Shown here: positions 784 through 55,195 of the stretch, piece after piece
Position numbering within the stretch: position 1 is the stretch's first letter
Layout of the letters: each line of letters opens with the position of its first letter
Assembly (NCBI GenBank): GCA_934183155.1
Contig: CAKPSB010000006.1
Span: 25,097 to 89,096, forward strand
DNA from: an uncultured Bacilli bacterium
Lineage (GTDB): Bacteria; Bacillota_I; Bacilli_A; RF39; UBA660
Direction: 5' to 3'
Length of the DNA stretch: 64,000 nt
The notes under the pieces: model-generated
Database searches by the model: none
The model's input: only the letters and a program-made list of their open reading frames with translations
What the model was told of the DNA's origin: nothing
Translations under genes and position numbers: made by a program

Positions 784-861
784 TGGGGCGGAATATCGGA
801 ATCGAACCGATGCATAACGGAACCACAATCCGCCGTGTTAACCACTTCACCAATTCCGCCA
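784..861 (-). tRNA. tRNA-His (anticodon GTG)
   Basis: Reverse complement reads GGCGGAATTGGTGAAGTGGTTAACACGGCGGATTGTGGTTCCGTTATGCATCGGTTCGATTCCGATATTCCGCCCCA. Cloverleaf with extra 5-prime G(-1), anticodon loop TTGTGGT, T-arm GGTTCGATTCC. Close to B. subtilis tRNA-His from memory. Confidence 0.8.
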
Positions 862-2551: not shown

Positions 2552-2749
2552 CTAAATGAATTTTGTATTGATAAAAAAATCATATAAAAAATTTACTACT
2601 AAATACGCTAAAGCCATGCTGATAAGTAAATATAATACTCTTGACGAATAGTATCTATTTTTTTTAAATATTCCTGATATGTTTAGACTTTCTAATGACC
2701 AAATTGTTATTATTATCACTACGATGTATATAAATCCTTTTAATGCCAT
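2552..2749 (-). CDS. Small hypothetical membrane protein (2 TM)
   Basis: 65-aa ORF with two hydrophobic helices between spoIID and rpiB. No recognisable family. Confidence 0.3.
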   Translation of the reverse strand: MALKGFIYIVVIIITIWSLESLNISGIFKKNRYYSSRVLYLLISMALAYLVVNFLYDFFINTKFI

Positions 2750-3267
2750 TAATTTTTATAACTATCTAGCATTTCAATGCGCTTTTTGTGACGTTCTAGA
2801 TTGCTGAAGGGGGTGTTTAAAAATACATCGGTAATGTCTTTTGCTCTATATAATGGCATGCTGCCGCTTATAGCAATTATATTAGCATCATTGTCTTTTC
2901 TTGTATATTTTGTTTCTTTAATATTATCAACTTTGGCACATCTTACTTTATCAATTTTGTTGCAAGCGATGCTTATGCCAATGCCACTTCCACAAATTGC
3001 TATGGCTTTTTCGACATTTCCATCTCTAACTGCTTTTCCCAATTTAAATCCATATTCAGGATAATCATGACTATTTTCATCATCGCATCCGTAGTCAATA
3101 ACAGTATAACCTTTCTTGTTTAAATATTTTGTAAGTTTTTGTTTTAATTTATAGCCTCGGTGATCACTAGCAAGACCTATTTTTTTTGTCGGAATATTTA
3201 TATCAAGCATTGTTTTTTCTTGATAATTGTTTTTTACTATTTCTTTTAATGATGTTTCTTTTTCCAT
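2749..3267 (-). CDS. rpiB: Ribose-5-phosphate isomerase B
   Basis: RpiB/LacAB signature KIGLASDHRGYKLK...AIAICGSGIGISIACNK. Start re-set to ATG at 3267 (MEKETS...) preceded by AGGAGG. The ORF-track 225-aa version runs through the tRNA-Trp gene. Confidence 0.85.
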   Translation of the reverse strand: MEKETSLKEIVKNNYQEKTMLDINIPTKKIGLASDHRGYKLKQKLTKYLNKKGYTVIDYGCDDENSHDYPEYGFKLGKAVRDGNVEKAIAICGSGIGISIACNKIDKVRCAKVDNIKETKYTRKDNDANIIAISGSMPLYRAKDITDVFLNTPFSNLERHKKRIEMLDSYKN

Positions 3268-3365
3268 TTTATGCCTCCTTTTTATATTATAACTTTCTTT
3301 TGTGAAATTTTTTAGAATTTTTAAATAAAAGGTCATAAACAGAGCTATGACCTTAGTTTTAATAA

Positions 3366-3440
3366 TGGCAGGGGAAGCAAGACTTGAACTCACGACATTC
3401 GGTTTTGGAGACCGACGTTCTACCAACTGAACTATTCCCC
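3366..3440 (-). tRNA. tRNA-Trp (anticodon CCA)
   Basis: Reverse complement GGGGAATAGTTCAGTTGGTAGAACGTCGGTCTCCAAAACCGAATGTCGTGAGTTCAAGTCTTGCTTCCCCTGCCA. Anticodon loop CTCCAAA, very similar to B. subtilis tRNA-Trp. Upstream (minus) TTGAAT-17-TGaTATAAT promoter-like sequence at about 3461-3489. Confidence 0.85.
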
Positions 3441-3518
3441 TATTTTTTTTGACAAGTTGATTATATCACATTATTTAAACTTATTCAATGTTTTTTCATA
3501 TAATATATTGGTGAGAAT

Positions 3519-3947: not shown

Positions 3948-3963
3948 AAGAGACTATTATAAA

Positions 3964-5037
3964 CTAGTCTCCTATTTTATGAGTTAATTTTAAAGTTAGC
4001 TCTTTTTCTTTACCATCTCTGTTGACTGTTACTTTAACGGAATCGCCTATATTGTGTTTATAAAGTAGATATTTTAAATGAGCTGAACTTTTAACTGTTG
4101 TTCCATCTATTTTAGTAATAATATCGTTTTTCTCTAATCCAGCTTTTTCAGCGTCACTATCTTTTTGAACTTCATTTACGATTACGCCTGATTTTACGCC
4201 GTTTATCTTAATGGTAGAATTATAATATTGTACTTTATCTAAGTCATAAAGTGAAACACCTATAAGTGGTCTTTCTATTGTCTTAGAATTTTCTAGTTTT
4301 TCTGTGCCACTCATGGCTACTTCAATTGGAATGGCAAATCCCATTCCCTCAACTGAGCTTTCAACTAATTTTACAGAATTTACGCCTATAACTTGTCCAT
4401 TTATGTTTACTAATGGGCCACCACTATTTCCTGGATTAATAGATGCGTCTATTTGAATTGCCTCCATCATGTATTGTGTTCCAGAATTAGTTATTGTTAT
4501 TTCTCTATTTTCACCTGATATTATTCCTTTGGTAACTGTACCGGCGTAGTCTGTGCTTACTGGAGTTCCAACGGTAAATACTGTGTCACCCACTTTTGAT
4601 TTTGAGCTATCTCCTATTTCAGCCACGCCTAATACTTTATCAGCGTTTATTCTAACAACAGCTATGTCCATGTATGAATCGGTTCCTAATACTTTGGCGT
4701 CTACATCTTCGCCTGAACTTAAGGTTACTTTTATTTCACTTGCGCCGTCTACAACGTGATTATTTGTCATAATATAACCGTATTTATTATCTTTTTTATA
4801 AACAAAGCCAGAACCATAGCCAGATAATCTACCATTTTGGTAGTTGTTAACGACGACGACTGAGTCGTATACTTTTTCAACTGATTCATTTATTGAATCT
4901 TTTGAGGTTATAGTTACATTTTTTTTGACTGATGTTTGATTATTATTTGTACTTTTTTCATTAAAATACAATGTTCCACAAACGCCTATTGATAAGGCTA
5001 TTATAATCATTACTATATTTATTATTTTTTCTCGCAT
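3964..5037 (-). CDS. htrA: HtrA/DegP-family serine protease with PDZ domain
   Basis: 357 aa, N-terminal TM. Catalytic His (TNNHVV), Asp, Ser (GNSGGPLVN), C-terminal PDZ-like region. Confidence 0.85.
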   Translation of the reverse strand: MREKIINIVMIIIALSIGVCGTLYFNEKSTNNNQTSVKKNVTITSKDSINESVEKVYDSVVVVNNYQNGRLSGYGSGFVYKKDNKYGYIMTNNHVVDGASEIKVTLSSGEDVDAKVLGTDSYMDIAVVRINADKVLGVAEIGDSSKSKVGDTVFTVGTPVSTDYAGTVTKGIISGENREITITNSGTQYMMEAIQIDASINPGNSGGPLVNINGQVIGVNSVKLVESSVEGMGFAIPIEVAMSGTEKLENSKTIERPLIGVSLYDLDKVQYYNSTIKINGVKSGVIVNEVQKDSDAEKAGLEKNDIITKIDGTTVKSSAHLKYLLYKHNIGDSVKVTVNRDGKEKELTLKLTHKIGD

Positions 5038-5046
5038 AATATCCTC

Positions 5047-5979
5047 CTAATCTAATTTTTTTATTTCATACCAATTTTCTGGAAAGCCTATTTTGTTTAA
5101 TATGGTTTCTAGAGGAACTGTGTCTATTTTTTCATCTAGCCAATCAACTTCTCTTTTTATTTCATTTATTAATCTTTCAAATTCTTCATTTCTAAGCATT
5201 TCCTTCATTATTATAACTAGACTAAATAGATCGTTTTTACCATAAATATAACCATCTTCTGATTTTGGAATATTTAAAATTTCATGATATTTACTGTCAG
5301 GAACAACCCTTTGGGTGCGATGGTCATATAACATATCTTCGTGCGCACACACATTTCTAAAGTTTGATAATAATACTAAATAGTCTGACAGTTTGCTTGC
5401 TGATATATTATAAACTTTGGCTATTTCATTTTGATCTTCGTTTTTTAATATTCCATAAAATTCAGCCATTATACCAAACGAAAGTATTTTAACAGAAATC
5501 CATAATGGAATGTATCCATAATTACTTATGTAATGCATGGTTGCCGTATGCTTACGTCCGTTTATTCTAATTTGTCTTTTTACTTTATCTAAAACATCAT
5601 AAACTCGTCTTGATTCTAGGCAATCTTGGGCAAAATTTTTGGGATCTAGATATTCTTTTTCTTTAAACCCGTATTTTTTACTCAGCTGGTAACTCATAAT
5701 TGATTTTATATTGTTTTCAACTATTAATATGTTTTTAAAGAATGTATTGCGCAAGGCTCTATCAAAGACAAATGTGGCATATAGTTCTTCAAATGTTGTT
5801 CCTGGCAAAAATTTTTTATCACCAAATTTGGCCATAAACAAATGTCTATAACCACTTATAAAAAAATAGTTTTCTCTAAAAAGTATTTCTCTAGCCTTTC
5901 CTTTATCTCTTATTATCAGGCCTTTATTTTCTAATATTTCTACTTGTTCATCTAGTGTTTTGAATATTTTTCCTGTCAC
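5047..5979 (-). CDS. Abi_2 family (AbiD/AbiD1/AbiF-like) abortive-infection protein
   Basis: 310 aa. N-terminal LENKGLIIRDKGKAREILFRENYFFISGYRHLF matches the Abi_2 (PF07751) consensus L..rGL.i.D...A...L..inYYrLsgY. Upstream minus-strand TTGACA/TGcTATAAT elements (13-nt spacer). Confidence 0.7.
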   Translation of the reverse strand: MTGKIFKTLDEQVEILENKGLIIRDKGKAREILFRENYFFISGYRHLFMAKFGDKKFLPGTTFEELYATFVFDRALRNTFFKNILIVENNIKSIMSYQLSKKYGFKEKEYLDPKNFAQDCLESRRVYDVLDKVKRQIRINGRKHTATMHYISNYGYIPLWISVKILSFGIMAEFYGILKNEDQNEIAKVYNISASKLSDYLVLLSNFRNVCAHEDMLYDHRTQRVVPDSKYHEILNIPKSEDGYIYGKNDLFSLVIIMKEMLRNEEFERLINEIKREVDWLDEKIDTVPLETILNKIGFPENWYEIKKLD

Positions 5980-6044
5980 TTTCTTCTCACCTATGATAAT
6001 TATAGCATAAAAACACTTGTCAAATATGATAAAATGGTGAAATT

Positions 6045-6701
6045 TTAATTCGTTAAATATTTTATTGACGCTTTTGTAATGACGTCTGCTAATTTATTTT
6101 GATAAGTTTCGTTTGTTAATAAAGCTCTTTCCCCCGAATTTGAAAGAAATCCTATTTCTAATAATAGCCCAGGTCTGTTTACTCTTCTTTGAAGATATCT
6201 AGTACTGTTTTCTTTATAATTTCTTTTGGTATTTAAATATTTTTTAAAATAGTCTTGAAAAATAATTGCTAGTTTTTTATTTTCGGGATTAATTGTATCA
6301 TAATGAGCCTCTGCTCCGTGAAGCAAACCTGTATCATCTGCATTTAAATGTATAGAAAGATATAAATCGCAGTTTGATTTATTAATTATGTTTGCTCGTC
6401 TTGATAAATCACTACGTTTTCTATTCCAAGCATTACCAACGGCTAAATCATAATCACCATATCTGGTTAGGTAGACTGTTGCACCAGCTTTTTTTAGAGC
6501 TTTTTCTATTTTTTTTGTTATTTCTAAGTTTATATCTGATTCTTTTATGTTTTTATAAAAGGCGCCACTATCGACTCCTCCATGACCACTATCTAAATAT
6601 ATTACTTTAGATAGTAATGGTAATTTGTTTTCAGCAAAAGTTATATTAAATAAGCATAACGACATTAACAAAGTAAATAATAATAGTGATCTATTTTTCA
6701 T
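6045..6701 (-). CDS. cwlD: N-acetylmuramoyl-L-alanine amidase (Amidase_3; CwlD-like)
   Basis: 218 aa, signal peptide, Amidase_3 motifs VIYLDSGHGGVDSGA...DLYLSIHLNA...GLLLEIGFLSN. Size and context consistent with a germination-specific amidase. Confidence 0.7.
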   Translation of the reverse strand: MKNRSLLLFTLLMSLCLFNITFAENKLPLLSKVIYLDSGHGGVDSGAFYKNIKESDINLEITKKIEKALKKAGATVYLTRYGDYDLAVGNAWNRKRSDLSRRANIINKSNCDLYLSIHLNADDTGLLHGAEAHYDTINPENKKLAIIFQDYFKKYLNTKRNYKENSTRYLQRRVNRPGLLLEIGFLSNSGERALLTNETYQNKLADVITKASIKYLTN

Positions 6702-6809: not shown

Positions 6810-7409
6810 TTAGGTGTTTTTTAAATATCCGATGATAACTATTTGTTTGTCAAATGATTTACAGGTAATTAGCGTTATCGTTTTTTTGCTTTTATCTCGG
6901 AAAATTGATACCTTTCCCGTCTTTAATACTTCATATTTTTTTGATATTTCATAAATATAGTTTTGACCTTTGTAATTTATTTCTATCTTATCTTTTAAAT
7001 TAAGTTCATCTAAATGTTTGAAATATCCAACGGCCGTATTGCCGCTATGGGCCGCTAATATAAAATTACCTCCTTCGATGTTTGGCAAGGATGATGTTTT
7101 TAATATTTCTATGTTCTTATTAACATCATTTAATGGCGAGTCTATATCATACAAGTATTTTTTTAATTTTATTTTAGGAATATTTATGACTCCTATGTAA
7201 TTGTTTTGATTTGTTTTTTCTGTTTTTATTTTTATATCTTCTTTTATTTTGTTTGGATTATTTTTTTCTTGATCTTTATTTATTGTATATGTTTCTTTTT
7301 TTATAGTTCGTTTTGTTTCTTTCAATATGGATATACAAATGAAAAAGCAACCAATTATTATTAAGGCTAAAGCTACTTTTCTAATTTTTTTTATATAAAG
7401 CAAGGCCAT
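6810..7409 (-). CDS. Sortase family transpeptidase
   Basis: 199 aa, N-terminal membrane anchor, catalytic His (NFILAAHSG) and TLITC Cys motif. Conserved Arg after the Cys not evident, so possibly atypical or C-terminally short. Stop codon lies inside a hairpin. Confidence 0.65.
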   Translation of the reverse strand: MALLYIKKIRKVALALIIIGCFFICISILKETKRTIKKETYTINKDQEKNNPNKIKEDIKIKTEKTNQNNYIGVINIPKIKLKKYLYDIDSPLNDVNKNIEILKTSSLPNIEGGNFILAAHSGNTAVGYFKHLDELNLKDKIEINYKGQNYIYEISKKYEVLKTGKVSIFRDKSKKTITLITCKSFDKQIVIIGYLKNT

Positions 7410-8274
7410 GTACTAACATAAAAGTCCCAATAAGTGGAGTAATATCATAAAGTCCCGTGTTTGGAACTTCTATTTCTTCAGGGACTTGTTCGCTTTTTAT
7501 TTCTAATGTTGCCTTTTTGTCAGAAGTTGCTCTTAAAGCGGCTAATTTTTGAGATGTTCCCTTACTATAGATTAATAATGGTGCGCTATCATAATATTTT
7601 CTTGTTAATTCTATCTCTTCATTATATGGGGACTCATTTAAAGTGATTATTAGTTGATTGTTTTCTTTAATTATTTTATGATATTTACTTTGCGCTATAT
7701 CATAGTCTTCTAACACGTTATTTTCATCTGTTAATGTTACTGTCGTTCCCACTTGGCCTTTTATCAGTTTATTAGCGAAACTAGGCATTAATTTATGCTT
7801 AGCTATAAGATTTTTTATTTCATCTTTTTCTTTGGTTACATCTATGATATTACCACTATTATTTTTGGCAGTTGACCATGATACATCAATATCACTTTTG
7901 ATGGCTTTCCATATTAATTCTTGAGTAGCTATATAATAATATTCTGTATTATGTCCTGGGTATTCATATCCATAATAACCAATAAGTTCAATATATTCTT
8001 TAACTTCGTTTGATAAATTGATGTTGTCCCAACTGGTAAATATTTCATAATATCTTTGATTTATTTCTACACCAGGTTCTATACAATATGCTATTCTTTC
8101 TTTTAGTTTAAACATAGTAACACCATTTGATTCTATCTTTCCATTTATGTTTAAATTATAGTATATTTCATTTAAATGAATGTAACTTATTTTTGCTTCT
8201 TCGGCTTTAGCAGAATTAAAATAGACTCCAAACAGTAAGATAAAAAATAATAGTAATGAAAATATTTTTTTCAT
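7381..8274 (-). CDS. Sortase-anchored surface protein (VPNTG sorting signal)
   Basis: Start re-set to ATG 8274 (MKKIFSLLLFF..., AGGAGA RBS). Signal peptide. C-terminal EIEVPNTG followed by a hydrophobic stretch and KKN tail, a classic cell-wall sorting signal. Confidence 0.55.
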   Translation of the reverse strand: MKKIFSLLLFFILLFGVYFNSAKAEEAKISYIHLNEIYYNLNINGKIESNGVTMFKLKERIAYCIEPGVEINQRYYEIFTSWDNINLSNEVKEYIELIGYYGYEYPGHNTEYYYIATQELIWKAIKSDIDVSWSTAKNNSGNIIDVTKEKDEIKNLIAKHKLMPSFANKLIKGQVGTTVTLTDENNVLEDYDIAQSKYHKIIKENNQLIITLNESPYNEEIELTRKYYDSAPLLIYSKGTSQKLAALRATSDKKATLEIKSEQVPEEIEVPNTGLYDITPLIGTFMLVHGLALYKKN

Positions 8275-8342
8275 ATTTTCTCCTTTCTTTTGCCCCTTCA
8301 TTTATTAACATAGTTTATGTTTTATTAAAATCCTGCTTTATT

Positions 8343-22473: not shown

Positions 22474-22546
22474 GTAATATTTATTTTATTTTTACTGATT
22501 TAATGTAACTATTTTTTAATTATTTTGAGTGATAGGATATGGTATT

Positions 22547-24658
22547 ATGAGTTATTTTAAACCGAATAAAATTAGTAATGGTGTTCTTGGCTTGGATATT
22601 GTTTATAGCCAAATAGAAGATGCATATGAAAAAATAAATAGTTGTAATAACTGTTTAAATTATTTAATTAAAGAAAATTTGAACTATAGTATTTCAAATA
22701 TTGCTGATAAAGTTTCTAAAAATCTTAGGACTAGTAAAGAGATGCAGAATAAAATTATTGATGTTATCGATGATTATAATAAAACGATGAGGCTAACTAC
22801 CGAAAATAGTATTGATTTAAATAGTATTTTACAAATGCCAGAAGAGCTTTTCTCATTTTTAGAACATAGCTCTGGTTCAATGGTAAAAATGCTTCAAAAT
22901 AGCTGTGATGTTCTTTATGATGTTGCTAGCGATACTGGAGCTAAATTTGTAGGCGATGTCAAGAGTTGGTTTACTAATCTTTATGAAACAAATATAGTTT
23001 ATAGAGCGGCTGCGTCAACTGGGGCTTCTCTTATAAATACTGGAATATCTTTTTTAAGCGGAGCAGCAAAATTTGTTGAAGGACTATTTGATGGGGCTTT
23101 TCTTTCTTTAGCTACTTTGGCTGTACCTATTACAGGACTTATAGATATGTCTTGGAATTGTTTAACTGGGGAAAATTTGGGTTTAACTGATACGATGTTA
23201 GAAAGTACGCGAGGTGTGGTACAGTATAACGCGGTTCAGTCTTGGTGTGACTGGTTATACAACACAGATTTTGGTAAAACTATTAATGATTGCTCATTTC
23301 CTTCATTTAAAAGAGATGGAGCCATATACAACTTGACAAATCAGGCCGGCACATTAGTCACTCCAATTCTTTTGTCAGCAGTTTTAGCATATTTTGGCGT
23401 TGATCCATCTATATCTTTGCCTCTATTAGCAGGTATTTCCTCATTTGGAAATACAACAGAAAATTTTTGGCAGAATGGCACTGGAACTGTGGAGGGAATG
23501 GCAGCTGGATTTTTAGATGGTTTATATAACGCCTTTCAATGGGCTATAGGTGGAAAATTAGATGGGACAGGGGCGAAATCTATATTATTTTATACCGTTG
23601 GTGGTTTTATTGAGCCTTTATTCCAAAGCTCCTTATTTGGCTTTGCTACTGGTGATGATATATTGAAAGTTTATAATGATAGTGGTGGATTAATGACCTC
23701 ACTTCAAAGTGCATTTTTATCTGGAATTATCGCTGGATGGGGTGAGCATAGTTATAATACAAAAATAAACACACAAAGATTAGAAGAGATCAATACTAAA
23801 AAAATAGATCTTGATATTTTTAACAATAAAATATCAGAAATAAATATTGAAAGAAATATAGATTCAGATACTTTTTCAAGCTTTAATGATATTGTTAATT
23901 TTTATAAAGTACATGGTAAAGCGCCCGGTGCATACTCTGTTGATGAAATTAATAATTTTTTAAATAAATATTCCAAAGAGGGATTTGATACTTTTAATTT
24001 TCTTAATTGCAGTGTAAAAGCTGAGCAAAAAAGTGTTATACATGACATTGGAACCGACTTAACTTACGTTGGAACCGAAAAAGGCAAAATTGGAAATACC
24101 GAATTAACATTTAATGTTTTACAAGATTCTGATGGAATACGTTATCGCATTCAAAATAGTGATGTCAATAATCACTTCCGTTTAAATGAAATATATGATT
24201 CTGTTTCAAAAGTAAAAGACTTTAGTGAATCTGGGGATTTAATGAAAAACGTTAAACAAATCGATGTTGTTTCTGTAAAAAATCCAGATGATGAGTTTTG
24301 GGCACAATTTCATGGTGATGGAACATTTACTTCTGCAGCAACTTTCAATAATGGTTATGTAACTATATACAAATTATCTCCAACTATAGATCAAACAATT
24401 GCTCATGAAGCAGGTCATGGTATAGATAAAAATAATATTTTATCTGGTTCAGATTTATGGGCTAAAGCTGCTGAGTTAGATGGAAATTTTGCGAGTGAAT
24501 ATGCTCGTTCATACAGAAATGGGGCAGCAGAAAATGGAGAGAAAAATTTGTATATTGAGGATTTTGCAGATTCAATTAGAAATCTTTATTCTTTAGGCTT
24601 TGAAAGGTTTCGCCAAAAATATCCTAACAGGGCTAAATTGTTGGAATTATTATTTTAG
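22547..24658 (+). CDS. Polymorphic toxin, LXG/EsaD-like architecture, with C-terminal ATLF/M34-like zinc metallopeptidase domain
   Basis: About 703 aa from ATG 22547 (ORF-track start is GTG at 22529). N-terminal about 150 aa is helical. A Gly/Ala/Ser-rich hydrophobic central region (AAASTGASLINTGISFLSGAAKFVEGLFDGAFLSLATLAVPITG...GTGAKSILFYTVGGFIEPL) resembles the EsaD/YeeF mid-region. The C-terminus has HEAGH (nt 24404-24418), then ELDGNFASEYA and YIEDFADSIR about 35-45 aa later, like the HEFGH...EFFAEAF of the anthrax lethal factor family. Confidence 0.6.
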   Translation: MSYFKPNKISNGVLGLDIVYSQIEDAYEKINSCNNCLNYLIKENLNYSISNIADKVSKNLRTSKEMQNKIIDVIDDYNKTMRLTTENSIDLNSILQMPEELFSFLEHSSGSMVKMLQNSCDVLYDVASDTGAKFVGDVKSWFTNLYETNIVYRAAASTGASLINTGISFLSGAAKFVEGLFDGAFLSLATLAVPITGLIDMSWNCLTGENLGLTDTMLESTRGVVQYNAVQSWCDWLYNTDFGKTINDCSFPSFKRDGAIYNLTNQAGTLVTPILLSAVLAYFGVDPSISLPLLAGISSFGNTTENFWQNGTGTVEGMAAGFLDGLYNAFQWAIGGKLDGTGAKSILFYTVGGFIEPLFQSSLFGFATGDDILKVYNDSGGLMTSLQSAFLSGIIAGWGEHSYNTKINTQRLEEINTKKIDLDIFNNKISEINIERNIDSDTFSSFNDIVNFYKVHGKAPGAYSVDEINNFLNKYSKEGFDTFNFLNCSVKAEQKSVIHDIGTDLTYVGTEKGKIGNTELTFNVLQDSDGIRYRIQNSDVNNHFRLNEIYDSVSKVKDFSESGDLMKNVKQIDVVSVKNPDDEFWAQFHGDGTFTSAATFNNGYVTIYKLSPTIDQTIAHEAGHGIDKNNILSGSDLWAKAAELDGNFASEYARSYRNGAAENGEKNLYIEDFADSIRNLYSLGFERFRQKYPNRAKLLELLF

Positions 24659-37724: not shown

Positions 37725-40700
37725 TTATTCATTGTCGATTGCAAGAAGCATCTTGATATCTTCCTCGGTAAGCTTTGAAAATTGATTTTCGGTATGTTTT
37801 TCATTATCAATAAGCATTTCAGCTAATTTTCTTTTTTTGTTTTGTAATTCTAGAATTTTTTCTTCAATGGTTCCTTTGGTAATTAATCTAATTACTTCAA
37901 CGGTATTTTTTTGACCTATGCGATGCGCTCTATCTGTTGCCTGATTTTCTACTTGGGGATTCCACCATAAATCTAAATGAATAACAACTGTGGCTGAGGT
38001 TAGATTTAAACCAGTTCCTCCAGCTTTTAGGGTTATGATAAATGCATCGGTAGTATCTTTGTTAAATTTTTCAACTAATTCCATGCGTTTTTTTGATGAT
38101 ATAGTTCCATCTATATAATATGTGGTTATTCCTTTTTTATTTAATTTGGGAATTATTAACTCTAAAGCTTTTCGATATGTTGTAAATATTAACATTTTAT
38201 GTCCATTTTGTTTTGCTTCAGAGGCTATTTTTAATAGTTCATTTATTTTCGAACTTTCACCTTTATAATTTTCAAATTCTAAGGCTGGAGATATACATAT
38301 TTGTCTTAATTTTGTTAGTAATTGCAATATTTTTAGTTTTGATTTAGTAAATCCTTCTTGTGCTATCATTTCATCAAGTGTTTCTTTTGTTTTTTCGACT
38401 TCGGCGGCATATATTTTCTTTTGTTTACTTTCTAAGTCAACATATATATTGTTTTCTATTTTAGCAGGTAGATCTTTAACAACATCTTTTTTCTTTCTCC
38501 TTAATATAAAATACTGTATTTGTTTATTTAATCTATCCATAACTTCTTTATTTTCAATATTTTTAATACTATATTTATTTTGAAATTTTTCTTTTCCTGC
38601 GAGATATCCTGGCATTATGAAGTCAAATATACTCCAAAGTTCCATTAAACTATTTTCTATTGGTGTTCCTGTTAAAGAAATCTTTACATTACTTTTTAAT
38701 TTTTTGATTGCTTTTGAAATTCCAGTGTTGGGATTTTTGATGTTTTGTGCTTCATCTATGGCTATTAAATCAAAACTTATTTTTTGATATTTTTCTAAAT
38801 CATTTCTAATTAATCCATAGGATGTTATTAAAATATTTGTATTATTTAAATTATTTAATTCATTTTGTCTTATTATTTTATTTTCGGCGATAACTTTATA
38901 ATTTAGTTCTGATCCAAATTTATCAAATTCTTTTTTCCAGTTATATATTAAAGAAGTTGGCGCTACTATGAGAATTTTAGCATTTTTGTTTTCTTTAATT
39001 ATCAATTTTATCAAGTATATTAATTGAATTGATTTTCCAAGGCCCATTTCATCTGCCAAAATACAGCCAAAACCTGTTTTGTATATATTATAAAGCCATT
39101 TTACACCAATTAGTTGGTAATCTCTTAATATTTTTAATTCTTCCTTTGGAAGGGGAATTTCTTTATCCTTATATGCTTTGAAATTTCTTATTAGTTCATT
39201 AAAAGCATCGTTTGTTTTAAGAATGTCTTGATAGTTTTCTTTTAGGCTATCAAGATATATAGCACGGTATCTTGGTATTTGTCCTTCGCCTTTTTGAAGT
39301 TGTTTATTTTCTATATTTATGATTTGCGTTAATGATTCTAACTTTTTGATATTTTCATCGGTGTTTAAATCAATTATGTTTCCATTTTTTAATTTATAAT
39401 AATGTTTTTTTTCTCTTAGAGAAGATAAAACGCTGGGTATTTCAGATTGTTCAATATTATCTAAATTAAAGTTATATGAAAGTATTCCATTTTGTCCTAT
39501 TTTAAATGTAACGTTGGTGGCTGTTTTTTTAATAATTTTTGTTTCTTTTATCTTTTGTGATGTAAATACTTCATAATCTTTACTTATTTCATAAATTCCC
39601 ATTTCTAAAAATTTTCCTATTTCATCTGTTTTATCTAGAATAAATGAATTGGCATTTACTTTAAACTTATATTTTGCTAATTTTGCTATTAAAATATTTT
39701 CATATTCGCTGTCCCGAACAATAGAAGGTGTTTTGTCAAAGTAATTTACTTCTTTTCCATAATTTAATTTTACTTCACATTTGATTGAATTATAATAAAA
39801 ATCAAAATATAATTTTGCACATGGTTTGGTAGGTATAGTTATTTCGGTTATGCTTTCATCTAACTTGATTTTTTCTTTTAATTTTGAGAGTAATCCACCG
39901 GTAAATTTTCCTAATTCTTTTTGTGAAAACATAAATTTATCTATTTTATTTTCTTTAAAAATGGTATAAAGTTTAAATAAATTTTTATCTAATTTATATA
40001 GTGTTTTTTTGTCATATATAAATGATGCGGTTTCGGTTAATTGTTTAAATAAAGAGATATTTTTTATTGATAAAAGATAATTTTCATTTTCTTTAGTAAG
40101 TTCTATGTCAAAGGGATTTTCTTCTTTATAGCCATTATATTGATTTCCATCCATTGTAAATTGTTTATTCTTTAATGTTTCCATAAAGGTGTTTAGGTAT
40201 TTTTCTGTTATTATACATTCATAATTTCCAATTTGGTAGAGATTAATGTTATAGTCTAAAATTTGTTTGTCAATTTTATCAAAATAATTTTGCTGTGGAT
40301 CATAGGTGAATTTTGTGGATATTTTGTATGGTTCGCTTTTACTATAAGCTCTCATAAAGTTGCGGTATTTATTATTTAGCGTATACATTTTATCTATTCC
40401 TATTTTATAATTTACTTTTATATAATTTCCTTGGTAATAGCTTTCTTTTTTTTCAAGATCAACGTCTAAAAATACTTGCTTTTTAATTATGTTTGTTTTT
40501 GAATCATAAAAACTGTCTAAAATCTTTTTGCCTAAAGCAAGTTGGTAAGTTATTGGATTTATTGTTTCACCATTAAAAAGAGCATCTTCGTATTTTAATA
40601 TACATGCGGCGATGTGTTTGCATGTATCCATTTTTTGATATTCTGGACAAGTACATGTATATTTTTCTAAATTTTTATTTTCTTTGTCGACTGTTATTTT

Positions 40701-40868
40701 TACAGTGTAATTTCTATCAATTTTTTCTGATTGTATTTGAAATTTAGCGTCTCTATATTTTTCTATATCCTCGGTTTCAATTATTTTTATTTTGTTTGCT
40801 TGATAATTTAATCCTCGCATGAAATTTGTTGTTCCACATATTTTAATTATTTTATCATATAACTTCAC
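37725..40868 (-). CDS. SNF2-family helicase with N-terminal SWIM zinc finger (YwqA/RapA-like)
   Basis: 1047 aa. SWIM CTCPEYQKMDTCKHIAAC. SNF2 motifs LADEMGLGKS, DEAQNIKN. C-terminal helicase domain (DLWWNPQVENQATDRAHRIGQ). Confidence 0.85.
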   Translation of the reverse strand: MKLYDKIIKICGTTNFMRGLNYQANKIKIIETEDIEKYRDAKFQIQSEKIDRNYTVKITVDKENKNLEKYTCTCPEYQKMDTCKHIAACILKYEDALFNGETINPITYQLALGKKILDSFYDSKTNIIKKQVFLDVDLEKKESYYQGNYIKVNYKIGIDKMYTLNNKYRNFMRAYSKSEPYKISTKFTYDPQQNYFDKIDKQILDYNINLYQIGNYECIITEKYLNTFMETLKNKQFTMDGNQYNGYKEENPFDIELTKENENYLLSIKNISLFKQLTETASFIYDKKTLYKLDKNLFKLYTIFKENKIDKFMFSQKELGKFTGGLLSKLKEKIKLDESITEITIPTKPCAKLYFDFYYNSIKCEVKLNYGKEVNYFDKTPSIVRDSEYENILIAKLAKYKFKVNANSFILDKTDEIGKFLEMGIYEISKDYEVFTSQKIKETKIIKKTATNVTFKIGQNGILSYNFNLDNIEQSEIPSVLSSLREKKHYYKLKNGNIIDLNTDENIKKLESLTQIINIENKQLQKGEGQIPRYRAIYLDSLKENYQDILKTNDAFNELIRNFKAYKDKEIPLPKEELKILRDYQLIGVKWLYNIYKTGFGCILADEMGLGKSIQLIYLIKLIIKENKNAKILIVAPTSLIYNWKKEFDKFGSELNYKVIAENKIIRQNELNNLNNTNILITSYGLIRNDLEKYQKISFDLIAIDEAQNIKNPNTGISKAIKKLKSNVKISLTGTPIENSLMELWSIFDFIMPGYLAGKEKFQNKYSIKNIENKEVMDRLNKQIQYFILRRKKKDVVKDLPAKIENNIYVDLESKQKKIYAAEVEKTKETLDEMIAQEGFTKSKLKILQLLTKLRQICISPALEFENYKGESSKINELLKIASEAKQNGHKMLIFTTYRKALELIIPKLNKKGITTYYIDGTISSKKRMELVEKFNKDTTDAFIITLKAGGTGLNLTSATVVIHLDLWWNPQVENQATDRAHRIGQKNTVEVIRLITKGTIEEKILELQNKKRKLAEMLIDNEKHTENQFSKLTEEDIKMLLAIDNE

Positions 40869-53399: not shown

Positions 53400-53612
53400 T
53401 GCTTGGAAAAGCGATGAAGGAAAGAATAGTAGGAATCTTTTTAGAGAGTCTATGGCTGGTGAAAATGGGCAAGTGAACTACTTTAAATGGCTCTGGAGCT
53501 GTTTAGCTGAATAAGCTAGAACGTATACACACGTTATGTGTTTAAGGTAAGTTGTCTTACAAATTAAGGTGGTACCACGTTTTAAACGTCCTTATATATT
53601 AAGGATGTTTTT
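53400..53612 (+). promoter_or_regulatory. T-box riboswitch leader (Met specifier) controlling metG
   Basis: Stem I AGAGAG element with AUG in specifier position (AGAGAGTCTATGGCT). Conserved T-box AAATTAAGGTGGTACCACG (53563-53581). Terminator ACGTCCTTA-TATAT-TAAGGATGT plus TTTTTT (53586-53613). Confidence 0.75.
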
Positions 53613-53629
53613 TGTTAGGAGGGATAGGT

Positions 53630-55195
53630 ATGAAACCAAAATTTTATATAACTACATCTATTTTTTATGCATCTGCGAAACCACATATAGGAAATACTTA
53701 TGAAGGTGTTTTAACAGATGCTATCGCAAGATATAAAAGATTGATGGGATTTGATGTTAGATTTCACACTGGATGTGATGAACATGGGGAAAAAGTAGAA
53801 TCAAAAGCTTTAGCGGCTAATAAAAGTCCACAAGAGTATGTTGACGAAATATCGCTTGAGGTTAAAAGAATTGATGATTTGCTTAATATAAGTTATGACA
53901 AGTTTGTTCGAACTACTGATTTAAATCATAAAGAAGTGGTGGCTAAAATATTTAAAAAACTTTATGATAAGGGAGATATTTATAAAGGAAAATATGAAGG
54001 CCTTTATTGTACACCTTGTGAGTCATTTTTTACGGAAAAAGATTTAGTTGGTGGTAAATGTCCTGATTGTGGAAGGGAAGTTCATAAAACTGAAGAAGAA
54101 GCTTACTTCTTAAAATTGAGTAAATATAATAAATGGCTTGAAGAATATATAGAAAATCATCCTGATTTTATTAAACCAGAAAGCAGAAAAAACGAAATTG
54201 TTAATAATTTTATTAAACCTGGTGTACAAGATTTATGTGTTTCAAGGACATCTTTTGACTGGGGAATTAAAGTTCCGTTTGATGAGAAACACGTTGTTTA
54301 TGTATGGCTTGATGCATTGGTTAACTATATAACTTTTGTTGGATATGATCCTGATAATGAAAGTGAAGAGTTTAATCATTACTGGCCTGCGGATGTACAC
54401 ATAATAGGAAAAGATATTCTTAGATTTCACACGATTTACTGGCCTGTGATATTGAAAGCGTTGGATTTACCTATGCCTAAATGTGTTTTTGGTCATCCTT
54501 GGGTTCTTTCTTCTGATAGTGATAAAATGAGTAAATCTAAGGGAAATGTTTTATATGCAGATGATTTAGTTCATTTATTTGGCTGTGATGCAATTCGTTA
54601 TTATGTTTTACATGAAATTCCTTATGGACATGATGGAAATATTGGTTATGAATTAATTATTGATAGAGTAAATTCTGATTTAGCTAATACTTTAGGAAAT
54701 CTTGTTAATAGAACAATAAGTATGAGTCATAAATATTTTAATGGCGTTGTTTTTAAACCTAGTGAAATAAATGATATTGACAAAGGTTTAATTGAAATGG
54801 CAACTAGCCTAGGTGATAGAATTGAAAGCAAAATGAAAGAATTAAAAATTGCGGATGCTTTAGAAGAAATAATTGATTTGTTTAGGCAATGTAATAAGTA
54901 TATTGATGAAACTACTCCTTGGATTTTAGCAAAAGATAAAAGTCAAGAAAAAAGATTACAAACTGTTTTATATAATTTATTAGAGTGTATTAGAATTGCT
55001 GCTGTTTATTTACAAGCTTTTTTACCTCAGACAGCTGATAAAATATTTGAACAGTTAAATACTCAAAATAGGAAACCCGAAAGTACTAAAGATTTTAATG
55101 GTATGGATGATGGTATTATATTAAACAAACCGGAAATTTTATTTACTAGAATAGATAAAGCCGAGTTTTCTTCAAAGATGAAAGCTAATGATTAG
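53630..55195 (+). CDS. metG: Methionyl-tRNA synthetase (short form, no C-terminal tRNA-binding extension)
   Basis: Start ATG 53630 after GGAGGG. HIGN(T) variant of HIGH, knuckles with CPDCG zinc motif, KMSKS. About 521 aa. Confidence 0.95.
   Translation: MKPKFYITTSIFYASAKPHIGNTYEGVLTDAIARYKRLMGFDVRFHTGCDEHGEKVESKALAANKSPQEYVDEISLEVKRIDDLLNISYDKFVRTTDLNHKEVVAKIFKKLYDKGDIYKGKYEGLYCTPCESFFTEKDLVGGKCPDCGREVHKTEEEAYFLKLSKYNKWLEEYIENHPDFIKPESRKNEIVNNFIKPGVQDLCVSRTSFDWGIKVPFDEKHVVYVWLDALVNYITFVGYDPDNESEEFNHYWPADVHIIGKDILRFHTIYWPVILKALDLPMPKCVFGHPWVLSSDSDKMSKSKGNVLYADDLVHLFGCDAIRYYVLHEIPYGHDGNIGYELIIDRVNSDLANTLGNLVNRTISMSHKYFNGVVFKPSEINDIDKGLIEMATSLGDRIESKMKELKIADALEEIIDLFRQCNKYIDETTPWILAKDKSQEKRLQTVLYNLLECIRIAAVYLQAFLPQTADKIFEQLNTQNRKPESTKDFNGMDDGIILNKPEILFTRIDKAEFSSKMKAND

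Follow-up and report, generated by a model that had tools for sequence, protein, structure and literature searches.

An AbiF-family HEPN gene conserved upstream of htrA in a clade of low-GC gut Bacillota

The characterised abortive-infection systems of the AbiD/F group are type III toxin–antitoxin systems, in which the toxin gene is directly preceded by, and co-transcribed with, the gene for a structured non-coding RNA (ncRNA) (PMC12373285, PMC13064643). This RNA ends in a terminator before the coding sequence and blocks the HEPN site of the toxin (PMC12373285, PMC13064643), serving in characterised systems as both antitoxin and transcription attenuator. An evolutionary link leading from AbiF to Cas13 has been reported (PMC12373285, PMC13064643), while the function of chromosomal abiF copies is stated to be unknown, with only general neighbourhood categories described for them (PMC12373285). 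A review of HtrA proteases in Gram-positive bacteria covers many htrA neighbourhoods, with no Abi neighbour among them (PMC12826053). Here we analyse an Abi_2 gene, hereafter abi2, located directly upstream of htrA in a 64-kb stretch of contig CAKPSB010000006.1 from an uncultured Bacilli bacterium (the window). We find that the abi2–htrA pair is conserved over a deep clade of low-GC gut Bacillota, and that the cis-encoded ncRNA antitoxin of AbiF-type systems is absent from the locus.

Family membership and conservation of abi2

The gene occupies positions 5047..5979 on the minus strand (GTG start 5979..5977, TAG stop 5049..5047) and encodes a protein of 310 amino acids. An earlier note on this DNA, made from its letters, had seen an Abi_2 consensus in this reading frame and suggested a Pfam search; the search bore this out, aligning residues 31–219 with the complete Abi_2 model PF07751 (positions 1–184 of 184) at 136.8 bits (E = 1.3e-39), against a curated cutoff of 25.6 bits. 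The PADLOC AbiD model matches the product end to end (positions 4–276 of 277, E = 2.7e-62). PHROG 2158, 'abortive infection resistance protein', matches at E = 1.2e-70, and no NCBIfam model matched. By sequence, the sole solved relative is 8vz6 ('Abi family protein', PbAbiF; E = 8.4e-15). An AlphaFold2 monomer model of the product (predicted local distance difference test score (pLDDT) 86.3, predicted template-modelling score (pTM) 0.84) gave one strong Foldseek match in the PDB, chain 8vz6_A of the PbAbiF dimer bound to its ncRNA (E = 5.1e-9, template-modelling (TM) scores 0.71/0.73). EsCas13d was a weak second fold match (Foldseek probability 0.92, TM 0.28).

The HEPN catalytic motif (R-phi-xxx-H, phi being N, H or D) can be read as R208-N-V-C-A-H213, encoded at 5341..5358 on the minus strand. 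These residues, RNVCAH, align with RNSCCH of 8vz6, and R208/H213 correspond to R210/H215 of PbAbiF and R202/H207 of AbiF_Cd, the AbiF of C. difficile. The equivalent Arg and His are needed for the toxicity of AbiF_Cd and the activity of PbAbiF (PMC12373285). R208, N209, A212 and H213 are invariant in the 28 orthologs described below and 99–100% conserved in 116 outgroup cluster representatives; D73, E88 and P158, like these four, are kept in orthologs and outgroups alike. All three features of Abi_2 family membership were found: the profile match, the HEPN motif and an AbiF-like all-helical fold. Judged by its sequence and predicted fold, the abi2 product is a genuine Abi_2 (AbiD/AbiF-family) HEPN protein with its catalytic residues retained. 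In family, fold and size (~300 amino acids) it is like the proteins of the described AbiF, AbiD and AbiD1 systems, namely PbAbiF, AbiF_Cd–RCd22 and lactococcal AbiD and AbiF.

To follow the junction across relatives, we used HtrA as the probe in a collection holding one genome per species, a search that is blind to the Abi gene. It returned 29 loci; one of them (L028), a high-GC Lachnospiraceae locus, holds an HtrA paralog downstream of a histidine kinase gene and was set aside. In all 28 remaining low-GC species loci, an Abi_2 ortholog lies directly upstream of htrA. This synteny persists where HtrA shares only 40–47% identity with the window protein; the Abi orthologs at these loci are 52–61% identical to abi2. 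The cwlD-like gene on the upstream side is present in the closer species and missing in the most distant ones, so the conserved unit is abi2–htrA.

Conversely, metagenome contigs were searched with the aligned Abi orthologs; this gave at least 478 relatives, and we kept the best 80 (57–75% identity). Three of these 80 loci have no sequence downstream of abi2, and htrA follows directly in 64 of the 77 that could be assessed. Among the same best 80, no htrA match was found at 14 loci, 9 of them with ample downstream sequence. In these nine the ortholog sits among ordinary chromosomal genes (pheST, a P-type ATPase, a PP-loop ATPase), and the orthologs without downstream htrA are still intact. Linkage of abi2 to htrA is strong, not obligatory, and the pair is conserved over a deep clade of low-GC gut Bacillota. 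The earlier note had called the gene a lone Abi insertion wedged into an envelope cluster, had proposed checking its presence at this junction in relatives and had named conservation across the clade as the outcome that would refute an insertion; such conservation is what both searches found. Two closed chromosomes from metagenome-assembled genomes (MAGs), OZ007038.1 and OZ007025.1, are among the relatives; in ascending order, the two sizes are 1.34 and 1.54 Mb. That abi2 is retained in genomes this small would fit an important function.

The two proteins have also diverged together. Pairwise identities of Abi and HtrA across 27 species are correlated with r = 0.95, a value reached in none of 2,000 Mantel permutations, and Abi is the more conserved of the two in 275 of 351 pairs. 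For the same genome pairs, Nei–Gojobori ratios of nonsynonymous to synonymous substitution rates (dN/dS) are 0.03–0.09 for abi2 and 0.055–0.23 for htrA, with similar dS. This co-divergence, with dN/dS as low as that of HtrA or lower, is again at odds with a lone insertion. Across the 28 Abi orthologs, 96 of 319 alignment columns are invariant.

We tested the limits of the subfamily against representatives of clusters built at 50% identity. There the abi2 orthologs make up a single cluster (503 bits), and the full-length protein ranked next reaches 288 bits; the nearest outgroup representatives share 41–43% identity or less. Homologs in phage records reach at most 31% identity, and a scan of viral contigs gave a single relative, at 30%. 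One outgroup protein, P0126, is encoded next to a CHAP/LysM endolysin gene, a context resembling a phage lysis module; the contigs of three further outgroup representatives are too short to show their context. The subfamily is therefore discrete, vertically inherited and under purifying selection of a housekeeping grade. The patchy, mobile or defence-island distribution that is a feature of AbiF systems was looked for and not found: abi2 is chromosomal, origin-proximal, syntenic, vertically transmitted and coupled to htrA.

Several individual loci deserve mention. Of the 28 species loci, only L029 (uncultured 'Tenericutes' UMGS1410) was seen to have a disrupted copy: at ~6990–7100, a poly-A run close to codon 20 divides its abi2 ortholog between two frames, through either misassembly of the MAG or a genuine frameshift or pseudogene. 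The bins of L001, L014, L016 and L018 carry a low-GC Bacillota locus under the titles Sphaerochaetaceae, Oscillospiraceae or Muribaculaceae, and these bins are likely to be mis-binned or mislabelled. At L071, a metagenome locus with short flanks, an open reading frame (ORF) resembling a reverse transcriptase lies upstream.

Operon, promoter and upstream region

The gene downstream of abi2, htrA (3964..5037, minus strand), encodes a membrane-anchored serine protease with Trypsin_2 and PDZ domains; upstream lies an Amidase_3/CwlD-like gene (6045..6701, minus strand). Pfam matches to both neighbours confirm the placement of abi2 between htrA and a cwlD-like amidase gene that had been read from the letters. 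The coding sequences of abi2 and htrA are 9 nucleotides (nt) apart, and the htrA Shine–Dalgarno sequence AGGAGGA (5042..5048, minus strand) overlaps the abi2 TAG stop codon at 5049..5047. A similar stop/Shine–Dalgarno architecture, with gaps of 8–13 nt, is seen in L001–L019, and ATGA stop/start overlaps or overlaps of 8–14 nt in L020–L024, L026 and L027.

A hairpin resembling an intrinsic terminator (3948..3973, minus strand) ends the abi2–htrA unit and is bidirectional, shared with a convergent sleB-like gene. No terminator-like site was detected between cwlD, abi2 and htrA in the window. Synonymous variation along abi2 in 106 orthologs shows no suppressed stretch (mean 0.65, standard deviation 0.06), the lowest window, at 0.48, covering only 4 codons; this flat profile rules out an embedded RNA or a conserved internal htrA promoter. 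With neither an internal promoter nor a terminator, htrA should therefore be transcribed through abi2. We conclude from this arrangement that abi2 is predicted to be the promoter-proximal cistron, and htrA the second, of a two-gene operon in which the two are translationally coupled. The gene had been called solitary, with no partner; htrA is its partner.

The intergenic region between cwlD and abi2 measures 65 nt and is taken up by the promoter. Its conserved core is an extended -10 element, TATGCTATAAT (consensus TRTGnTATAAT; 5999..6009, minus strand), which ends 19 nt before the start codon. TRTGnTATAAT is nearly invariant in an alignment of 25 upstream regions; in 83 of 103 loci TGnTAnAAT precedes the start codon by 15–27 nt, with TGnTATACT in most others. 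A TTGACA hexamer resembling a -35 element (6018..6023, minus strand) lies 13 nt from TATAAT and 16 nt from AATTAT. The hexamer pair on which an own promoter had been proposed, TTGACA at 6023..6018 and TGCTATAAT at 6007..5999 with a 13-nt spacer, is present as described, and our promoter scan reports the other reading, TTGACA-16-AATTAT. The TTGACA hexamer is peculiar to the window, being absent from the aligned upstream regions of other species, and what is conserved is the extended -10. Since an extended -10 needs no -35 element, the short spacer need not matter.

The abi2 Shine–Dalgarno sequence AGGTGA (5987..5992, minus strand) begins only 6 nt downstream of the -10 hexamer. Across loci, TAGGTGA is kept, and AGGTGA stands within 17 nt of the start codon in 61 of 103 loci. 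This close placement implies an abi2 leader of only ~10–15 nt.

Upstream of the -10 element, two direct-repeat boxes, TTTCAC (6042..6037) and TATCAT (6031..6026), together spanning 6026..6042 on the minus strand, are spaced 11 nt from start to start and begin 3 nt after the cwlD stop codon. We counted such boxes in 82 de-duplicated loci, at the positions equivalent to 6026–6042 of the window in L001–L027 and L033–L112; these sequences are related and not independent. No 6-mer upstream of the -10 element is more enriched than TTTCAC (20 of 82 loci, compared with 1.4 in shuffles). Distances of 11 nt (20 observed, 0.2 expected) and 22 nt (7 observed, 0.2 expected) stand out sharply between [TA]CA[CT]A sites, which sit at set positions relative to the -10: -47/-46, -36/-35, -25/-24 and -14. 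Sites of OmpR/PhoB-type response regulators are typically direct repeats in helical phase that overlap the -35 region.

In B. subtilis, the CssR box TTTTCACA controls htrA and htrB (PMC6749698, PMC12826053). The core of the phased boxes equals this CssR box. TTTCAC(A)-type boxes thus precede htrA in the CssRS system and the abi2–htrA unit here, where they are phased at 11 bp; the difference is that in this clade a gene for a HEPN-family protein, the putative RNase, stands between the candidate regulated promoter and htrA. The phased TTCAC(A) boxes suggest a candidate site for an OmpR/PhoB-type, CssR-like regulator, as a lead rather than a demonstration. A WalR-type site is presumably an alternative identity for the TTCAC boxes. 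An anti-Shine–Dalgarno role, in which TTTCACC would pair with GGTGAGA in read-through transcripts, was rejected: the longest duplexes between upstream region and Shine–Dalgarno sequence came to 7.57 nt, against 7.79 nt in shuffles.

The promoter leaves no space for an upstream antitoxin RNA. With the Rfam abiF model RF03085, the 64-kb window gave no match at the gathering threshold, the segment 3400..7000 no match even at E ≤ 10, and eight orthologous loci no match either; the abiF motif upstream of the phiC2 gene, the positive control, was detected. Being narrow, the model also failed to detect the ncRNA-like hairpins of close outgroups, so the Rfam negative alone is weak and was backed by promoter geometry, folding z-scores and a hairpin-motif search. 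Shuffled sequences fold at least as well as the 101 nt preceding abi2 (z = +0.95). Among the controls, L116 gave z = -2.1 and phiC2 z = -3.0, whereas L114 (z = -0.9) was not significant. The upstream gaps of phage and outgroup homologs measure 220–380 nt. No stem-forming copy of the hairpin found in outgroups was detected in the window or in any orthologous locus.

This outgroup hairpin, CTCTGG-ATACCTTCGGG-TCCAGAG followed by a run of T, is common to L114 (3940–3990), L116 (285–365) and L117 (80–111). L116 has two copies, and in L114 a hairpin like it closely follows the gene on the other strand (~4979). It looks like an AbiF-type ncRNA antitoxin or a terminator.

The cis ncRNA antitoxin of AbiF-type systems is therefore absent at abi2: the gene has no upstream ncRNA, abiF motif or terminator. 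Because this RNA and a patchy, mobile distribution were both tested for and neither was found, abi2–htrA should not be filed as an AbiF-type type III toxin–antitoxin or abortive-infection module.

Possible roles of the abi2 product

The best explanation, which we hold with moderate confidence, is that abi2 is a fixed chromosomal HEPN RNase gene co-expressed with htrA and not a mobile defence insert. As to what it does, we tentatively propose, with somewhat less assurance, a domesticated stress or housekeeping RNase that tunes translation or RNA turnover under envelope protein quality control. By analogy with PbAbiF and AbiF_Cd, the abi2 product would act as a dimeric HEPN endoribonuclease. It would be latent or substrate-specific rather than a freely active toxin, because it would be made whenever htrA is transcribed. 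Its dosage may follow the envelope- or secretion-stress programme of HtrA, and in many lineages this would probably run through an OmpR/PhoB-type regulator acting on the 11-bp-phased TTCAC(A) boxes.

Several points weigh against this reading. Nine metagenome orthologs, clear ones at 59–67% identity, are not followed by htrA, and loci from related organisms are not independent samples. The phased TTCAC pair occurs in only 31 of the 82 de-duplicated loci (~38%), and no regulator gene, cssRS included, was identified for the boxes. The physiological role is read from genomic context. Our RNA search covered 64 kb with a narrow Rfam abiF model, and a trans-encoded RNA partner may lie elsewhere in the genome. 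Core-conserved defence genes are unusual, not impossible.

The last point bears on the alternative that we take most seriously although we think it unlikely: a hard-wired anti-phage HEPN toxin that became fixed in the clade, stays latent through its own structure or a host factor, and responds to a phage product or to envelope damage caused by phage, with co-transcription of htrA as a sensing route. The protein is a full AbiD/F family member with an intact catalytic motif, its gene has a strong promoter of its own, and a phage protein is known to trigger a lactococcal AbiD-like system and to raise the efficiency of AbiD1 (PMC13064643). A defence gene whose position and sequence are kept down to 40% HtrA identity, with dN/dS of at most 0.09 and co-divergence with HtrA, would however be atypical: genes of this family are patchy even within species and enriched near mobilome and defence genes (PMC12373285), whereas abi2 has no other defence genes among its profiled neighbours and lacks the antitoxin RNA in cis. 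That RNA could in principle be encoded in trans, making abi2 part of a canonical AbiF-type type III toxin–antitoxin system. RCd22 can neutralise AbiF_Cd in trans (PMC12373285), and a divergent RNA could escape the Rfam model as the outgroup hairpins did. We nonetheless regard this as improbable, as neither an abiF-like match at the gathering threshold in the window nor a stem-forming hairpin copy there or in orthologous loci was found, in all of the described AbiD/F-group systems that we consulted the RNA directly precedes the toxin gene (PMC13064643), and separating toxin from antitoxin would remove the logic of addiction and attenuation.

Two further explanations fare much worse. One is that abi2 is a non-catalytic relic, its frame kept only for promoter and translational-coupling signals that serve htrA. 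This would fit the lack of room for a separate htrA promoter and the overlap of the htrA ribosome-binding site with the abi2 stop codon. It is very unlikely, given that the whole 310-residue protein, R-N-x-x-A-H included, is under purifying selection (the 96 invariant columns and the low dN/dS, ≤0.09), that a mere spacer would not conserve an active site, and that orthologs remain intact where no htrA follows. The other is a recent solitary Abi insertion into the envelope gene cluster, which the frequent mobility of the family and the gene's own promoter might suggest; the same junction in 28 of 28 low-GC species loci, a G+C content equal to that of the flanks, co-divergence with HtrA, the lack of mobile-element genes among the profiled neighbours and the low identity of the closest phage or outgroup homologs (≤31–43%) leave it the least probable explanation of all.

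A bolder version of that reading is, in our view, doubtful and still less probable than the hard-wired toxin: an AbiF branch was domesticated, lost its antitoxin and came under an HtrA-type stress promoter, so that it now forms the cytoplasmic, RNA-cleaving arm of a response to unfolded envelope proteins. Its cleavage of mRNAs, tRNAs or rRNA would ease the secretory load, with HtrA removing misfolded proteins beyond the membrane at the same time. If true, bacteria would have a counterpart of IRE1-dependent RNA decay, and gut bacteria with reduced genomes would offer a case of a defence toxin turned into core physiology. The likeness to the KEN RNases of IRE1 and RNase L is conceptual only, that of a HEPN-superfamily RNase tied to secretory or envelope quality control; KEN has reportedly been classed as HEPN by Anantharaman et al. 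in 2013. There is no homology beyond the superfamily, and the abi2 product has no kinase or sensor domain. With Cas13 (type VI effectors such as EsCas13d) it would have HEPN RNase chemistry in common, but the likeness in fold is weak and the abi2 product is a single-HEPN-domain protein of ~310 amino acids. No repeat array, CRISPR or crRNA is evident at the abi2 locus, where no dedicated repeat search was run.

Our literature search found no account of an Abi_2–htrA operon or of an antitoxin-less, core-conserved AbiF branch, nor any in which envelope or secretion stress is linked to cytoplasmic RNA cleavage through abi2–htrA; looking for the two genes together brought up only papers on the eukaryotic ABI2, which is unrelated. 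Coupling to htrA and the phased boxes suggest such a link. The locus indicates that an AbiF-type HEPN toxin can persist over long evolutionary times without a cis RNA antitoxin, locked in an operon with a housekeeping protease, which raises the question of how the nuclease is kept harmless and what it is used for. An RNA-free, host-integrated branch would be a third outcome of AbiF evolution, beside toxin–antitoxin systems and CRISPR effectors. In practical terms, pipelines that accept a lone Abi_2 protein, such as the single-protein AbiD call of PADLOC, would report an anti-phage system in every genome of the clade and inflate defence counts.

Surroundings of the operon in the window

The window is origin-proximal housekeeping DNA, with parB, a gene for an MscS-type channel, ychF-rpsF-ssb-rpsR, tilS, ftsH, mfd, addAB, an SNF2 helicase gene, bipA and mreB. 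No mobile-element gene was found among the profiled ORFs of the 64 kb, which upholds the earlier statement that no such context is visible. The G+C content of abi2 (0.28–0.29) is that of its flanks, and no sign of horizontal transfer was found in its composition.

No complete defence system was found in the profiled parts of the window. Ten proteins were compared with PADLOC as further defence candidates and rejected, as the only matches among them were generic helicase- or nuclease-domain matches without system partners: the SNF2 protein to DpdE and ZorD, AddA to GajB and AddB, weakly, to Cas4. The first of these is a 1,047-residue helicase with SWIM zinc-finger, SNF2_assoc and SNF2 helicase domains (37725–40868, minus strand). 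It matches the helicase parts of DpdE and ZorD strongly and has no partners nearby, so this is probably a generic domain match, not a defence system.

Upstream of cwlD, a gene for a thioester-domain (TED) surface protein (7381..8301, minus strand) overlaps a sortase gene (6810..7409, minus strand) by 29 nt. At the C terminus of the TED protein, a VPNTG-type sorting signal precedes a hydrophobic tail. The overlap with the sortase gene suggests a dedicated adhesin–sortase pair. The pair is kept at this position in most related loci and diverges fast (43–64% identity).

Elsewhere, a 709-residue ORF (22529–24658, plus strand) has no Pfam match at E ≤ 1e-5 and no PADLOC match. For an RpiB/LacAB-like gene in the 2749–3441 region (minus strand), the longest ORF call, with a TTG start at 3426, enters a tRNA gene (3369..3441), and its true start is probably an internal Met. 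A second tRNA gene lies at 787..859, and a T-box leader (53405..53596) precedes an ORF at 53612..55195.

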